In this document: one piece after another, positions 3,834 to 57,204 of the stretch
How positions within the stretch are numbered: the first letter of the stretch is position 1
Layout: each line of letters begins with the position of its first letter
NCBI GenBank assembly: GCA_015063845.1
Contig: SVTJ01000005.1
Coordinates: forward strand, 19,454-83,453
Reading direction: 5' to 3'
Origin: Oscillospiraceae bacterium
GTDB taxonomy: Bacteria > Bacillota > Clostridia > Oscillospirales > CAG-272
Length of the DNA: 64,000 nt
Made by a program: the position numbers and the translations under genes
The notes under the pieces: model-generated
What the model saw: the letters and a program-made list of their open reading frames with translations, nothing else
The model's database searches: none
Told to the model about the DNA's origin: nothing

Positions 3834-3840
3834 ACCGTAA

Positions 3841-3896
3841 AGAACGCGGAGACGCGAGGACGCGAGGATGCGAGGACGCGAGGACGCGAGGACGCG
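3841..3896 (+). repeat. Tandem array of seven 8-nt units (consensus AGGACGCG)
   Basis: Units are agaacgcg gagacgcg aggacgcg aggatgcg aggacgcg aggacgcg aggacgcg. The array starts 7 nt after the TAA of the upstream CDS. Confidence 0.95.
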
Positions 3897-3930
3897 TTGA
3901 GGGGAACTTCTTGAAAGAAGTTCCCCTCAA
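3897..3930 (+). repeat. Module B: 34-nt perfect palindrome/hairpin
   Basis: TTGAGGGGAACTTCTT-GA-AAGAAGTTCCCCTCAA. Variants occur at 9635-9670, 33298-33333, 56911-56944 and 7018-7047. Confidence 0.95.
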
Positions 3931-4017
3931 ACTCCCTTCAAGAACTTTAAAACTAAATTGTTATTGGTGTAGCCGTAAAAAAGATATAACTTTATTGGTT
4001 TTATTATAAGGAAAAAA

Positions 4018-4055
4018 CTCGTCGGACGATAGATCACCGACGAGTTTTATTTTTA
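4018..4055 (+). terminator. Intrinsic terminator embedded in repeat module C
   Basis: CTCGTCGG-11 nt loop-CCGACGAG followed by TTTTATTTTTA and preceded by an A-run. The same structure occurs at 9759-9796, 33422-33459 and (variant loop) 57031-57060. Confidence 0.8.
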
Positions 4056-4112
4056 TGGGTATTGTATATGAATGCGTAAAAATTAAATACACGAGCCCGA
4101 ATGAAGAATGAT

Positions 4113-4258
4113 AAATTAGGATTTATCGGTGTGTTGAATTACAATTCCGTAGGGGCGATTCACGAATCGCCCGCCACGAGAACATAATGCTATAAACGGG
4201 CGATTCGTGAATCGCCCCTACGATTTGATGGATCTAACTATTCGACAAATCCTAATTT
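4113..4258. repeat. Module D: REPIN-like foldback with two inverted GTAG-headed palindromes, bounded by inverted AAATTAGGATTT ends
   Basis: Left end is AAATTAGGATTTATCGGTGTG and right end is CGACAAATCCTAATTT. CGTAGGGGCGATTCACGAATCGCCCG (4148-4173) and its exact reverse complement (4197-4222) are separated by 23 nt. The second copy at 10062-10207 differs at 2 positions. Confidence 0.9.
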
Positions 4259-4466
4259 GAAAGTGCACAAATGGCATCGCATTGCAACAAAGGCTCCCTG
4301 CGGAGGGAGCTGTCGAGCGAATGCGAGACTGAGGGAGAGCGCGTGTACAATAGCGTTATATCTTACCTCCGTATGCACGCTGGCTCCTTCCACCACTTCG
4401 TGGTCCCCCTCCCTCTCGGAGGGAGGCTTATGGGTGCTGTGCGAACACACCGACAAATCCTAATTT
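4259..4466 (+). repeat. Module E: 208-bp hairpin-rich cassette (candidate non-autonomous mobile element or structured RNA)
   Basis: Differs at 3 of 208 positions from the reverse complement of 9854-10061. Hairpins at 4293-4310 (GCTCCCT-GCGG-AGGGAGC), 4392-4404 and 4408-4426 (CCTCCCTC-TCG-GAGGGAGG). Right end is GGGTGCTGTGCGAACACACCGACAAATCCTAATTT. Confidence 0.9.
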
Positions 4467-6995: not shown

Positions 6996-7017
6996 GTTAA
7001 TTGAATATTATATTAAG

Positions 7018-7077
7018 AGGGGTACTTTCTTTCAAGAAAGTACCCCTTGCGCTTCCCTAAAAACTTTTAAAAAATAT
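7018..7077 (+). repeat. Short member of the repeat family (B-type hairpin plus conserved tail) downstream of GH31
   Basis: AGGGGTACTTTCTT-TC-AAGAAAGTACCCCT followed by TGCGCTTCCCTAAAAACTTTTAAAAAA. Compare module B plus ACTCCCTTCAAGAACTTTAAAAC. Confidence 0.8.
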
Positions 7078-9590: not shown

Positions 9591-9853
9591 GCAGCATACG
9601 CGGAGACGCGAGGACGCGGAGACGCGAGGATGCGTTGAGGGGGACTTTCTTGAAAGAAAGTCCCCCTCAAACTCCCCCAAAGAACTTTAAAACTAAATTG
9701 TTATTGGTGTAGCCGTAAGAAAAGATATAACTTTATTGGTTTTCTTATAAGGAAAAAACTCGTCGGACGATAGATCACCGACGAGTTTTATTTTTATGGG
9801 TATTGTATATGAATGCGTAAAAATTAAATATACGAGCCCGAATGAATAATGAT

Positions 9854-10061
9854 AAATTAGGATTTGTCGGTGAGTTCGCACAGCACCCATAAGCCTCCCT
9901 CCGAGAGGGAGGGGGACCACGAAGTGGTGGAAGGAGCCAGCGTGCATACGGAGGGAAGATATAACGCTATTGTACACGCGCTCTCCCTCAGTCTCGCATT
10001 CGCTCGACAGCTCCCTCCGCAGGGAGCCTTTGCTGCAATGCGATGCCATTTGTGCACTTTC
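9854..10061 (-). repeat. Module E, second copy, inverted relative to locus 1
   Basis: The reverse complement matches 4259-4466 except for 3 substitutions. Here it lies to the left of module D rather than to the right. Confidence 0.9.
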
Positions 10062-10207
10062 AAATTAGGATTTATCGGTGTGTTGAATTACAATTCCGTA
10101 GGGGCGATTCACGAATCGCCCGCCACGAGAACATAATGCTATAAACGGGCGATTCGTGAATCGCCCCTACGATCTGTTGGATCTAACTATTCGACAAATC
10201 CTAATTT
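10062..10207. repeat. Module D (REPIN-like), second copy
   Basis: GTAG palindromes at 10097-10122 and 10146-10171. Same orientation as copy 1. Confidence 0.9.
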
Positions 10208-18397: not shown

Positions 18398-19699
18398 TCA
18401 AAGAACGTCGTTTCTCACAAGGTCCTCATAGGTCTCTCTCTTGACAACAACTCTGTCCTCTCCGTCCTTGACCATAACGACGGCAGGGCGGGGGAGACGG
18501 TTGTAGTTTGATGCCATAGAGTAATTGTACGCGCCCGTAACGAGCACGGCGAGCGTGTCACCTCTCTCGGGTCTTTGTATCTCCATATTCTCACCGAGCA
18601 GGTCGCCCGACTCACAGCATCTGCCCGCAAGCGTTGCTCTGTAATCGCGCGCATCGGATGCGCGGTTGGCTACAAGTGCCGTATACTGAGACTGATAAAG
18701 CGCGTATCTCGGGTTGTCAGGCATACCGCCGTCGACCGAGATATAATTTCTGAAGCCCTTTACTTCCTTGACGCTGCCGACCGTGTAGAGCGTGATGCCC
18801 GAGGCGGCAACCAGCGAGCGGCCGGGTTCAAGGATAACTCTGGGCATAGCGATGCCGTTTTTGACGCAAAGCGCCTTTACTATCTCGGATATCTGTCTTA
18901 TGCTGTCGGCGTAGTCTATCTCTCTGTCATACTCGGTGTATCTTACGCCAAGACCGCCGCCGAGATTGAGCTCGCGTATCTCAAAGCAGCATTCCTTCTT
19001 TATATCCGCCATAAATTCGGTCATTATTCTCGCCGCGTCCTCAAAGGGCTCGATGTCGAATATCTGCGAGCCAATGTGGCAGTGTATGCCCGCAAGGTCG
19101 ATACCGTTTGCCTCGATAGCCTTTTTGACGATATCCATAGCCTGACCCGTCACAATGGCGTTGCCGAACTTTGAGTCTACGTTTCCCGTGATTATCGCTC
19201 TGTGCGTATGGGGGTCGATGCCGGGGGTGATGCGAAGCAATATACGCTGAGTTATCCCCCTGCGTACAGCCTGTGCGCTCACAGCCGCAAGCTCGTCCTC
19301 GTTGTCGACGACGAACGTGCCGACACCCATATCCATAGCGTCGCATATATCTCTGTCGGTCTTGTTGTTGCCGTGAAAATATATTCTCTCTGCGGGGAAG
19401 CCTGCGCGCTTTGCGGTATAAAGCTCACCGCCCGATACGCAGTCGATGCCCATACCCTCCTGTGCGGCGAGCTTGTATATGCCCGTAAAGCACAGAGCCT
19501 TTGAAGCGTAGAGGGGGAGCGCATCCTCGCCGAAATACTTTCTTGCGGCGTCGCGATAGGTGCGGCACTGGCGGCGAATGACGTTCTCATCAAGAACGTA
19601 CAGCGGAGTGCCGTGCTTTTTCGCAAGCTCAACGGTATCCATTCCGCCGATGGTGAGATGTCCCGCTTCGTTTATATCAAGATGGTCGTGAATTATCAT
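18398..19699 (-). CDS. lysA: Diaminopimelate decarboxylase
   Basis: PLP-dependent fold-III decarboxylase of 433 aa. GTPLYVLDE, YASKA and CESGD motifs characteristic of LysA. Confidence 0.85.
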   Translation of the reverse strand: MIIHDHLDINEAGHLTIGGMDTVELAKKHGTPLYVLDENVIRRQCRTYRDAARKYFGEDALPLYASKALCFTGIYKLAAQEGMGIDCVSGGELYTAKRAGFPAERIYFHGNNKTDRDICDAMDMGVGTFVVDNEDELAAVSAQAVRRGITQRILLRITPGIDPHTHRAIITGNVDSKFGNAIVTGQAMDIVKKAIEANGIDLAGIHCHIGSQIFDIEPFEDAARIMTEFMADIKKECCFEIRELNLGGGLGVRYTEYDREIDYADSIRQISEIVKALCVKNGIAMPRVILEPGRSLVAASGITLYTVGSVKEVKGFRNYISVDGGMPDNPRYALYQSQYTALVANRASDARDYRATLAGRCCESGDLLGENMEIQRPERGDTLAVLVTGAYNYSMASNYNRLPRPAVVMVKDGEDRVVVKRETYEDLVRNDVL

Positions 19700-24328: not shown

Positions 24329-24583
24329 TTTAGAATTTGTCGGTGTGTTCGCACAGCACCCCTTTTAAAAGTTTTAGTCAAGTTTTTTTAAAAACTTGCG
24401 GGGTCAAGGGGCGGCGCCCATTGCCGCTCTCCGCAGAGAGCGGAATCCTTTACACTGAGAAGGGAGTTCCGACGCTTGCGAGCGTCGGCAATCCTGCGCG
24501 GCTTGAGCGCGAAAACTTTTGAAAAAGTTTTATCAAAACTTTAAAGCCGGGTGCTGTGCGAACACAGCTATAAATCCTAATTT
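24329..24583. mobile_element. Complete 255-bp foldback element of the repeat family (MITE-like)
   Basis: About 34-nt inverted ends (TTTAGAATTTGTCGGTGTGTTCGCACAGCACCC / GGGTGCTGTGCGAACACAGCTATAAATCCTAATTT). Internal 8-bp-stem tetraloop hairpins at 24424-24443 and 24469-24488, plus an AT hairpin at 24379-24398. No coding capacity. Confidence 0.55.
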
Positions 24584-32557: not shown

Positions 32558-33265
32558 ATGATGCAGAACACGGATATTTCGCTTCTTGAGAGAGCGATAG
32601 GTTATACCTTTAAGGACAAAAGAATACTTAAGGAAGCTTTGACGCATTCTTCGTATGCTCACGAGCTGAGAAGCAAGAGGATAGAGACGCAGTGCAACGA
32701 ACGTCTTGAATTTCTCGGCGATTCCGTGCTCTCTATCGTTACGAGCGAGTATCTGTTTTCAAAGTATACCGATCTGCCCGAGGGCGACCTTACTCATATG
32801 CGCGCGGCTCTCGTTCAGTCGCAAGCGCTTGCTAAGTATGCAAGAGGTATAGGGCTTGGACAGTTTTTGTACGTTGGTAACGGTGAAGAAAGAAACCGTG
32901 ACCAGCAGTCAATACTTGAGGACGCATTTGAAGCTCTTTTGGCGGCTATGTACCTTGATGCCGCCGAAAACGGACTTGACGTGATAAGAGCGTTTTTGCT
33001 TCCCATAATCAAAAAGGAGCTCGAGGAGAATAGCACGCGTACCTTCTATGCGGACGCTAAGACCGAGCTTCAGCAGCTTACGCAGATAAGCGACGGAGCG
33101 ACACCCGTTTACCGAGTAATAGGTGAGAGCGGACCCGATCATCAGAAGACCTTTGAGGTCGAGGTTATGCTTAATTCTAACGTTATCGGTCACGGCAAGG
33201 GACGCTCAAAGCGCGAGGCGGAACAAAACGCCGCTCGCGAAGCACTCGAATTGTTTGGTGTATAG
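32558..33265 (+). CDS. rnc: Ribonuclease III
   Basis: Signature NERLEFLGDSVL and a C-terminal dsRBD (GPDHQKTFEVEV..GKGRSKREAEQNAA). Confidence 0.95.
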   Translation: MMQNTDISLLERAIGYTFKDKRILKEALTHSSYAHELRSKRIETQCNERLEFLGDSVLSIVTSEYLFSKYTDLPEGDLTHMRAALVQSQALAKYARGIGLGQFLYVGNGEERNRDQQSILEDAFEALLAAMYLDAAENGLDVIRAFLLPIIKKELEENSTRTFYADAKTELQQLTQISDGATPVYRVIGESGPDHQKTFEVEVMLNSNVIGHGKGRSKREAEQNAAREALELFGV

Positions 33266-33773
33266 AGGACGCGAGGATGCGAGGACGCGGAGACGCGTTG
33301 AGGGGGACTTTCTTGAAAGAAAGTCCCCCTCAAACTCCCCCAAAGAACTTTAAAACGAAATTGTTATTGGTGTAGCCGTAAGAAAAGATATAACTTTATT
33401 GGTTTACTTATAAGGAAAAAACTCGTCGGACGATAGATCACCGACGAGTTTTATTTTTATGGGTATTGTATATGAATGCGTAAGAATTAAATACACGAGC
33501 CCGAATGAATAATGATAAATTAGGATTTATGGGGGGTGTTTGTGTTGTAAAACGGGTCGTCGAGGACAACTTCGTACCGAGTTTTCTTCGAAAACATCGG
33601 TCGACCCCTACAATGGATAGAGCGAACATATTCGCATCAGATGTTGTTTGATGTGCATTTGATGGAAAATATGTTTATGTTTTATGGTGAATTCTATTAG
33701 GAGCGTGTAGGGGTCGACGTCCTCGTCGACCCGTTTTACAACACAAACACAATACACCGATAAATCCTAATTT
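33266..33773. repeat. Composite repeat locus 3, module order A(4 units)-B-C-G
   Basis: The 8-mers at 33266-33297 begin at the base after the rnc TAG. Hairpin B at 33298-33333, terminator at 33422-33459, foldback G at 33517-33773. Confidence 0.95.
33517..33773. repeat. Module G: 257-bp foldback with about 50-nt inverted ends and a GTAG-headed palindrome
   Basis: The left end AAATTAGGATTTATGGGGGGTGTTTGTGTTGTAAAACGGGTCGTCGAGGAC aligns with the reverse complement of the right end ..GTCCTCGTCGACCCGTTTTACAACACAAACACAATACACCGATAAATCCTAATTT. GTAGGGGTCGACGTCCTCGTCGACCC at 33707-33732, and an inverted partial copy at 33599-33611. Confidence 0.85.
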
Positions 33774-56880: not shown

Positions 56881-57204
56881 CAAATTTGGATTTATCGGGG
56901 ACGCGTTTTTTTGAGGGAAACTTCTTGAAAGAAGTTTCCCTCAAACTCCCTTCAAGAACTTTAAAACAAAATGGTTATTGCTATAGCCATAGGAAATATA
57001 TAACTTTATTGTTTTTCTCTGAGGTAAAAACTCGTCGGACCCTACGTACCGACGAGTTTTATGGGTATTTGAACGTTCTGCACTGCAATGAGTTTTTCAG
57101 CCCAATTAAAAAAATAATAATTTCTTTGTGTTAAAGTTCTTAGAGTGGGGGACACTCGCAAGCGTCGGCAAGCCTGTGCGAACACCCCGACAAATCCTAA
57201 TTTG
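56881..57204. mobile_element. Complete 324-bp foldback member of the repeat family (MITE-like), carrying divergent B and C modules
   Basis: Inverted ends CAAATTTGGATTTATCGGGG / CCCCGACAAATCCTAATTTG match at 18 of 20 positions. One GACGCG unit, hairpin B' at 56911-56944, terminator hairpin at 57031-57056, and a sub-terminal inverted AAGAACTTTAA(A/C)AC motif. Confidence 0.55.

Follow-up and report, generated by a model that had tools for sequence, protein, structure and literature searches.

A 208-nt repeat, designated E, occurs twice in a 64,000-nt stretch of an Oscillospiraceae genome assembly (contig SVTJ01000005.1, positions 19,454 to 83,453; this whole stretch is called the window) and twice more on the metagenome contig L007. 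E is best read as a non-coding, non-autonomous and one-ended member of a repeat family, built from a structured core and a single arm of a terminal inverted repeat (TIR), which we call S. The same core is conserved across many species, in some of which it lies between two inverted S arms, and wherever the junction of E could be read, its bare end abuts the S tip of a neighbouring element. Taking these observations together, we hold with moderate confidence that a unit consisting of S and the E-body was copied into S ends that already existed, and that this was driven by the homology between them.

One-ended architecture of E and the S repeat family

The two copies in the window are inverted relative to each other and agree at 205 of 208 positions (98.56% identity by blastn), which bears out the original prediction of an inverted pair with about 98.5% identity. 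None of the three mismatches (4287, 4365 and 4447) is located inside a stem. The adjacent module D keeps its orientation at both loci (144 of 146 positions identical in the same orientation vs. 72.8% if reversed) and is found to the left of E at locus 1 and to the right of the inverted E at locus 2, so that, as also predicted, a single inversion is not sufficient to relate the two loci. Reading both copies in the orientation of E confirmed a common left junction, in which GA(C/T)AAATCCTAATTT is immediately followed by GAAAGTGCAC, and a common right end, ..CACCGACAAATCCTAATTT. Both D+E composites (4113-4466 and 9854-10207) are 354 nt long, have inverted S at both bounds and share their flanks, namely the C module described below and GAAGCACAA. 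The earlier statement that all three reading frames are open on each strand was wrong: only frame 0 of the plus strand is free of stops, and each of the other five contains one or two. A coding gene was rejected due to the stops in five of six frames and because homologues of the reading frames are only spurious; a CRISPR or other tandem array was rejected as well.

The 12-mer AAATCCTAATTT at the left junction occurs 11 times in the window if one mismatch is allowed, compared with 0.33 expected occurrences, and none of 100 shuffled sequences reached 11. It forms the outer tip of S, a TIR of 23-35 nt with the consensus AAATTAGGATTTRTCGGTGTGTTCGCACAGCACCC, which is common to at least five elements of the window resembling MITEs (transposable elements of miniature size with inverted repeats). 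For the right 35 nt of E (positions 174-208 of the element), matches were found to el24330 at each of its two ends, to el56882 at its right end and to D at its left end. Therefore, the direct repeats that seem to flank E are its own single TIR and the TIR tip of its neighbour. Of the claim that E is flanked by direct 12-nt copies, the fixed adjacency stands, but the 12-mer is the tip of S and not a free-standing target, and the claim that E lacks inverted ends is right for E alone but not with regard to the family, as the right end of E is one arm of the family TIR. Two TIR arms, as expected for a MITE, are present in the family, whereas E has only one S arm. The left arm of E shows no likeness to S and has no homologue beyond the E copies; its start (TGAAAGTGCACAAAT) resembles TGAAGCACAAAT, the flank after the D/E composites.

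A comparison between species yielded the S consensus AAATT-NNN-RTTT-R-TCGG with invariant tips (AAATT/AATTT) followed by three variable nucleotides. At the tips of complete elements only AAATT/AATTT is constant and no other flanking direct repeats were found; a duplication of the palindromic 4-bp sequence AATT is possible. A target duplication of S with a fixed length was rejected, since the three junctions of E would call for duplicated lengths of 16, 23 and 30 nt. The orthologous site of el24330 upstream of Lon is too diverged to reveal an exact empty site or target. A further S-bounded element of 341 nt is located on contig L001, and the same contig contains a solo S tip (AAATTAGGATTTATCGGT, 19559-19576), which follows an A-B-C mosaic and leads straight into the 3' end of a gene without an element body. 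On contig L096, S-type elements stand end to end (219-260 and 539-580) with the same heptamer GGCGTTC between them at both junctions, and on L015/L058 the sequence GCGTTC is located ahead of the left S, which suggests that in this subfamily a conserved end or a preferred target extends beyond AAATT.

A third junction context was provided by L007, which derives from a different sample of the Joint Genome Institute (JGI) and was found by a protein-space search with the spurious open reading frames (ORFs) of E. On this contig an inverted E is located between a B-type hairpin and an element similar to el56882, and GTGCACTTTC abuts AAATTAGGATTT. In all three readable contexts the bare end of E abuts an S tip that is in direct orientation with the S of E, with the right end of D (locus 1), the left end of D (locus 2) and the el56882-like element (L007) as docking partners. 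E thus behaves as a discrete unit, and the fixed junction and relative orientation of the original prediction are borne out, including the independent context on L007. With 11 S tips per 64 kb, the probability of three exact abutments by chance would be negligible.

The direct repeat around the E-body on L007 has a length of 28-30 nt (A(G/A)ATTAGGATTTATAGATGTGTTCGCACAG), and both S copies carry ATAGATG, the variant of the neighbour. In detail, the S on the E side follows the ATAGATG type up to position 19, continues with the E-specific CACCC and has a private G at position 2 (AGATT...), and in the other S the base at position 2 is the common A, after which the sequence of the neighbour follows. 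This pattern fits two switch points, of which TGTTCGCACAG would contain one and the first 12 nt the other, and is not expected if E had inserted together with its own ATCGGTG-type S. In the second E copy on L007 (1-160), S is of the usual ATCGGTG type, and the flank on the right of this copy is a different one.

Table 1. Position and structure of E, its parts and related elements in the window.
Feature	Position	Strand	Description
E copy 1	4259-4466	+	left arm and structured core, followed by one S terminal repeat
E copy 2	9854-10061	-	inverted; 205/208 identical to copy 1
E left arm	4259-4291	+	GAAAGTGCACAAATGGCATCGCATTGCAACAAA; without TIR
E-core	4292-4427	+	136-nt pseudo-palindromic module of five hairpins
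Hairpin H1	4292-4311	+	GGCTCCCT-gcgg-AGGGAGCT
Hairpin H1b	4312-4329	+	GTCGAGCG-AAT-GCGAGAC; variable hairpin
Helix H2	4331-4390	+	GAGGGAGAGCGCGTG (4331-4345) pairs with CACGCTGGCTCCTTC (4376-4390); variable loop between
25-mer	4385-4409	+	TCCTTCCACCACTTCGTGGTCCCCC; holds hairpin H3 (4392-4404), ACCAC/GTGGT
Hairpin H4	4408-4426	+	CCTCCCTC-tcg-GAGGGAGG; CCTCCCT/AGGGAGG
S arm of E	4432-4466	+	GGGTGCTGTGCGAACACACCGACAAATCCTAATTT; 91-97% identical to both el24330 arms
D copy 1	4113-4258	+	146 nt; inverted S bounds (23 nt left, 16 nt right); body of two inverted GTAGGGGCGATTC...GCCCC hairpins
D copy 2	10062-10207	+	orientation as copy 1
A-B-C mosaic	3834-4112	+	upstream of locus 1; also 9591-9853 and 33265-33516
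el24330	24330-24583		S-family element; both TIR arms, about 32-35 nt
el33517	33517-33773		S-family element; AAATTAGGATTT tips and own 55-nt inverted arms
el56882	56882-57203		S-family element; B/C modules inside

A conserved structured core

The predicted hairpins (4293-4310, 4392-4404 and 4408-4426) were confirmed. Homologues conserve them, and they are part of a larger core (Table 1). Folded as RNA, E is more stable than shuffled sequences, with z = -3.37 for the plus strand and -2.01 for the minus strand. An alignment of 50 distinct full cores with 131 consensus positions showed standard pairs in 98.8% of the cells compared with 52-59% in controls with slid partners. As all 50 cores were chosen by an exact match to the 25-mer, the invariance of H3 in this alignment is uninformative with regard to its conservation; a compensatory change in H3 was found in copies without the exact 25-mer, for example ACCGC/GCGGT in L060. 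The strongest covariation is seen in H1b with 32 sequence variants and at least 10 unrelated stems (among them GTCGCC/GGCGAC, CCCGAC/GTCGGG, TTTTGC/GCAAAA and GTCACGG/CCGTGAC), nearly all of which fold as a hairpin with a tri- or tetraloop. In H4, a double change from C-G to T-A is present in 24 of the 50 homologues, and H2 is formed in homologues by pairing of GAGGGAG..CGCGT with ACGC..CTCCTTC. Compensatory changes were thus seen in H1b, H3 and H4, and as a natural data set on the covariation of hairpins the core family is a clean one. The core is also pseudo-palindromic, as the reverse complement of H4 is similar to H1 and each copy is matched by nhmmer on both strands.

Evidence for conservation outside the window came from two peptide stretches shared by distant protein-space matches, the first distant homologues, and these stretches go back to conserved DNA at 4292-4427. 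When species-representative genomes were scanned with the exact 25-mer, more than 115 stretches in about 74 assemblies were among the matches listed. The hosts, spread over the Oscillospirales, are Oscillospiraceae, Ruminococcus, Ruminococcoides, Acutalibacteraceae, Flemingiibacterium, Colimorpha and unclassified Clostridia/Eubacteriales, and the source samples are mostly of ruminant or other gut origin. Within the window the core is present in the two E copies only. Searching plasmids with E by blastn gave no match, and phages gave only matches of 30-50 nt to the H1-H1b part on unannotated human faecal contigs. A collection of metagenome contigs yielded no match to the pattern of the left part of E, and this collection does not cover the organism studied here, whose JGI contig L002 has the pattern. 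There was also no match in Rfam 15 for the whole window at gathering score, for E at E <= 10 or for the homologue on L008, and no text-searchable paper with 17-mers from the conserved 25-mer was found; keyword searches were uninformative. Cataloguing this family, which is absent from Rfam, would improve the annotation of metagenome-assembled genomes of Oscillospirales from rumen and gut.

Outside the window the core is flanked by inverted S-type ends on L037 (5138-5352) and L056 (4796-5147, isolate Ruminococcus sp. LCP21S3_E8), and further complete S-core-S elements were identified on L093 (1188-1470), L015/L058 and L096. Therefore, we regard the association of core and S as old and the form with two TIRs as canonical. 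The E of the window is a derivative without the second TIR arm, and L117 and L036 likewise appear one-ended. Many other cores are located in shells with different inverted arms or without detectable ones, which indicates that the core is a module of several kinds of repeats. Core-family modules are in addition nested or arranged in tandem (L032 40-560, L123 4710-5764, L051 3250-4240), and S-bounded composites of up to about 1 kb contain two cores and other hairpin modules; the core family evidently builds large mosaics.

To which purpose the core might serve can be approached from its position relative to genes, which according to crude gene calls is convergent in 18 cases, divergent in six and co-directional in 40. 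The co-directional cores show no strand bias (21 on the same strand vs. 19 on the opposite one), and the core avoids divergent promoter regions. In most copies H1 is preceded by AAA and H4 is followed by TTTT, and each terminal hairpin thus looks like an outward-facing intrinsic terminator. A transcript arriving from either side would then end after crossing the whole core structure. Most likely the core is an orientation-independent hairpin module at gene 3' ends, which we infer to act at the level of the nucleic acid as a terminator or stabiliser. If so, the spread of the core would reshape how 3' ends are processed in many genes.

The original prediction also considered E as a structured RNA carried as cargo, and this is partly supported by the conserved structured core in many species. 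It is possible, although we regard it as the weaker explanation, that the core is a functional RNA, either a small RNA or an element of a 3' untranslated region, which is kept by selection while the S arm hitch-hikes; this would be compatible with any mode of mobility. The compensatory changes in H1b, H3 and H4, the stability of E relative to shuffled sequences and the higher stability of the plus strand in 44 of 50 homologues are in line with such a function, but DNA cruciforms or intermediates of single-stranded DNA would lead one to expect covariation just as well. H4 together with a T-run looks like an intrinsic terminator, and at 12-14 loci the position of the copy upstream of XRE-type regulator genes, which are diverse, is conserved. 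In contrast, the lack of an Rfam family, the random orientation relative to flanking genes and the occurrence in many copies with shuffled modules, which is typical of selfish repeats, speak against a selected RNA. No promoter-like site was found upstream of E and E is located behind the terminator of the C module, and therefore a small RNA gene driven by its own promoter is unlikely.

Of the 14 helix-turn-helix genes of the XRE type that lie beside cores, 12 are located 200-520 nt downstream on the same strand (loci include L023, L024, L038, L044, L068, L070, L077, L082, L083 and L111). While the regulators at these loci are very diverse, the core is conserved together with arms of about 57 nt and 35 nt (TTTGGTGGTGTTTT... 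and ...GGGTTCGGGCTTCTGCCCGA). This association and the stability of the plus strand remain unexplained by a role as terminator or stabiliser. Cores or 25-mers were also observed beside small genes, which we take to be DUF559-like from the sequence MPLQYNGKYIPLAKALRKNATKEE.. (L098 7852 and L053 861), and on L098 the 25-mer is only 5 nt away from the gene. A location next to tRNA genes is not a general feature of the core (3 of 39 loci).

Possible routes of E to S ends

According to the account we prefer, the unit of S and E-body would have been copied into a pre-existing S end, with the homology on either side provided by S. The route may have been gene conversion or template switching, or the action of an S-specific recombinase or transposase on an intermediate with one S. 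The product would be S-body-S in direct orientation, and the polarity of the recipient S would dictate the orientation of E. This would place E to the right of D at locus 1 and, inverted, to the left of D at locus 2. The likeness between TGAAAGTGCACAAAT and TGAAGCACAAAT suggests that the E-body itself might originate from flanking DNA trapped between two S ends.

The search for a protein partner covered the genes of the window at about 1-34 kb and 43-56 kb, referred to as the looked-up parts. These are housekeeping genes and glycoside hydrolases, and no transposase, recombinase, Y1, TnpB, IscB, RAYT or integrase gene is among them, which also means that the relative encoding TnpA(Y1), TnpB or IscB proposed as a search target with the original prediction did not turn up in these parts. 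Moreover, there was no S-flanked ORF in 934 kb of related loci and no match in genome contigs scanned with a long TIR pattern or in metagenome contigs scanned with the inner TIR. A scan of viral contigs with the S tip gave two chance matches only, inside a phage gene. Clustering of the genes next to core loci revealed no transposase family, only XRE-type regulators and two DUF559 genes.

Several points weigh against a homology-driven copying of E and an orientation-independent role of its core. There are only three junction contexts, two of which are paralogous composites 5.7 kb apart, and at locus 1 the shared S homology does not exceed 16 nt, a short length for RecA-dependent recombination. 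The pattern on L007 could equally result from homogenisation of adjacent repeats after insertion. An empty site, the search for which had also been suggested, was not found for E specifically, as neither locus differs between contigs of the same strain and the closest relative is devoid of the whole mosaic. Since the searches turned up no transposase or recombinase bearing S ends, an enzyme-driven and a homology-driven process are not separable. Furthermore, the plus strand of the core is the more stable one in 44 of 50 homologues (p = 4e-7), which hints at a strand-specific function in single-stranded form that an orientation-independent model does not explain, and the core of the window itself has only a weak T-run after H4 (TTATGGG).

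A rather unlikely explanation is that a dedicated enzyme, be it a transposase of the S family or an S-specific recombinase, targets an S end and joins the E body with one S to it, perhaps in the form of a small circle. Junctions that are exact to the base and of fixed polarity in all three contexts would be in line with such an enzyme, as would be the short homology at locus 1, since a cassette-like action needs no long homology. The invariant AAATT/AATTT tips next to three variable nucleotides suggest a site that is read by an enzyme; S elements stand end to end elsewhere (L096, with GGCGTTC as a constant spacer), and three loci of the window have the C module directly against S. However, neither the looked-up parts nor the 934 kb of related loci nor the viral and metagenome scans revealed a gene with S ends, and the variant of the neighbour in the S of E on L007 is not predicted by simple insertion. 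A DDE transposase normally requires two inverted ends, and a dedicated DDE-type transposition of E with a cut at its TIR-less end seems unlikely. We consider it improbable that the core represents a kind of structured nucleic-acid element in Oscillospirales not described so far, which has a sequence-specific partner, and that a dedicated recombinase moves S-flanked units such as E from one S site to another. In such a cassette system the constant arm, composed of the 25-mer and H4, would be the site of protein recognition and the variable hairpin a module for specificity or stability. If true, this would be a non-coding "cassette" system on transposon ends, analogous to integrons and pdif modules. 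In integron cassettes and in the pdif (XerC/D) modules of Acinetobacter plasmids a unit with one site becomes flanked by two, and here as there the polarity of the site sets the orientation of the unit and the order of units differs between loci. Unlike these systems, E has no cargo gene, S resembles neither the R'/R'' cores of attC (GTTRRRY) nor dif and doubles as an ordinary inverted terminal repeat, and no integrase is encoded in the looked-up parts. An integron attC site was also rejected as an identity for E, because the ends of S and of the core (AAATT... and AAAGGCTCCC...GGGAGGCTTT) do not correspond to RYYYAAC/GTTRRRY and the looked-up parts lack an integrase.

The resemblance to "peel-and-paste" elements of the insertion sequence (IS) group IS200/IS605, in particular palindrome-associated transposable elements (PATEs), on which the original prediction was centred, was not supported, and we judge such an origin very improbable. 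In this case a Y1 transposase of the HUH type would recognise the hairpins H1 and H4 of a single strand and place E 3' of the pentamer AATTT. It is true that the left flank and the right end of E share ..AATTT, that the orientation is fixed without an evident target duplication, that H1 and H4 are similar sub-terminal hairpins and that the plus strand folds better than the minus strand. However, IS200/IS605 elements are by definition without TIRs, whereas the right end of E is a TIR and the same core is located between two TIRs in other species, which makes this origin unlikely. The supposed target comprises 12-30 nt at the tip of a TIR, itself 23-35 nt long, by which ordinary inverted-repeat elements are bounded (el24330, D, el33517 and el56882 as well as those on L037, L056 and L093), the complete relatives of E carry two inverted S arms, and the left flank of these TIR-bounded relatives is not AATTT. 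In addition, a Y1, TnpB or IscB gene is missing in the looked-up parts, the IS605-orfB motifs of Rfam gave no match, and the core has no orientation bias relative to neighbouring genes, which served as a proxy for the direction of replication.

Similarly improbable, if slightly less so, is a scenario in which E never moved alone and the D+E composite was duplicated together with the A-F mosaic, followed by two nested inversions across S, first of the composite and then of D. As judged from the sequences, an inversion at the outer S and a subsequent inversion of D reproduce locus 2 exactly, and the two composites agree in length, inverted S bounds and flanks. But two separate events across repeats of 16-23 nt would be required, and neither the position of E beside a different element on L007 nor the E copy at 1-160 of this contig with its different right flank is explained. 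The copying of S and E-body into existing S ends accommodates all three junctions by the polarity of the recipient S. Independent of the mechanism, the one-ended docking on TIR tips is a way to ask if MITE mosaics arise by recombination between shared ends or by transposition targeted to ends.

The repeat family of E seems to be undescribed but of a familiar bacterial intergenic kind (for a general overview of bacterial MITEs and intergenic repeats see Delihas, 2011, PMC3184786). We see the closest analogies in structured MITEs and mosaic clusters of repetitive extragenic palindromic (REP) sequences and bacterial interspersed mosaic elements (BIMEs), and the analogy to cassette systems concerns the docking rule only. 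Examples of MITEs with a structured core are the Correia elements of Neisseria, bcr1 of Bacillus cereus and the pneumococcal RUP. The family of E has in common with them the small size (150-350 nt), the multiple non-coding copies in intergenic regions with a bias to gene 3' ends, family TIRs, a stable fold with terminator-like hairpins and nested or mosaic arrangements. It differs in that E has one TIR and docks on the TIR tip of another element, that there is no unambiguous target duplication but at most a palindromic AATT, that the scans of genome, metagenome and viral contigs gave no autonomous IS with S ends, and that the E-core also occurs in shells with other ends or none.

REP, BIME and REPIN sequences have been characterised in Proteobacteria and are mobilised by RAYT (Y1) transposases. 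Their hallmark is GTAG followed by a GC-rich hairpin of 20-40 nt, arranged in inverted doublets. GC-rich hairpins, inverted doublets able to form one long hairpin, mosaic hairpin clusters after stop codons and an orientation-independent location at 3' ends are shared with the repeats described here. In contrast, the E-core has no GTAG, comprises about 136 nt with five helices and is located inside TIR-bounded elements, its hosts are Firmicutes, and no RAYT gene is present in the looked-up parts. Module D has GTAG-hairpin doublets (GTAGGGGC...GCCCCTAC), and its body consists of two inverted GTAGGGGCGATTC..GAATCGCCCC hairpins. A similar arrangement was observed in el33517, which carries GTAGGGGTCGAC.. 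hairpins (33560-33600 and 33705-33740), so that REP-like GTAG doublets are enclosed by S as in D.

Genomic setting and neighbouring modules

Both loci are mosaics located right after stop codons and composed of octamer repeats (A), a hairpin (B), an intrinsic-terminator module (C), D together with E and an AT-rich hairpin region. In the syntenic relative L130, whose CpsB protein is 82% identical, the intergenic region at locus 2 comprises 43 nt compared with 708 nt in the window, and the region of locus 1 comprises 159 nt with the B hairpin only. Therefore, we conclude that the mosaic is an insertion in this lineage, which has considerably swollen the intergenic space. The repeats also have practical consequences, as they yield spurious ORFs and break metagenome assemblies: the JGI contigs of this strain all stop inside E. 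The ENA contig L001 contains from 11686 onwards (cf. 4113 in the window) A-B-C followed by a different sequence, an inverted hairpin piece of the el33517 type and unrelated genes. This join represents a different genomic locus or else an assembly that is chimeric across the repeat.

The hairpin of module B (GAGGGGAACTTCTTGAAAGAAGTTCCCCTC) recurs after genes at 3897-3930, 7017-7047, 9637-9668, 33300-33331 and 56910-56945. In the related species it occupies the orthologous site as well (L130 11880-11912), in the absence of the rest of the mosaic, and module B may be an older terminator-like repeat that spreads separately. The octamers of module A (GGACGCGA/GAGGACGC) were observed at 3844-3895, 9598-9634 and 33266-33298 with three to six units and a copy number that differs between the loci, in each case directly after the stop codon and just ahead of the B hairpin. 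The same octamer sequence, GGGGACGCG, forms the inner part of the left S arm of el56882 (56895-56905), and the octamers thus look like a microsatellite-type expansion of a TIR remnant.

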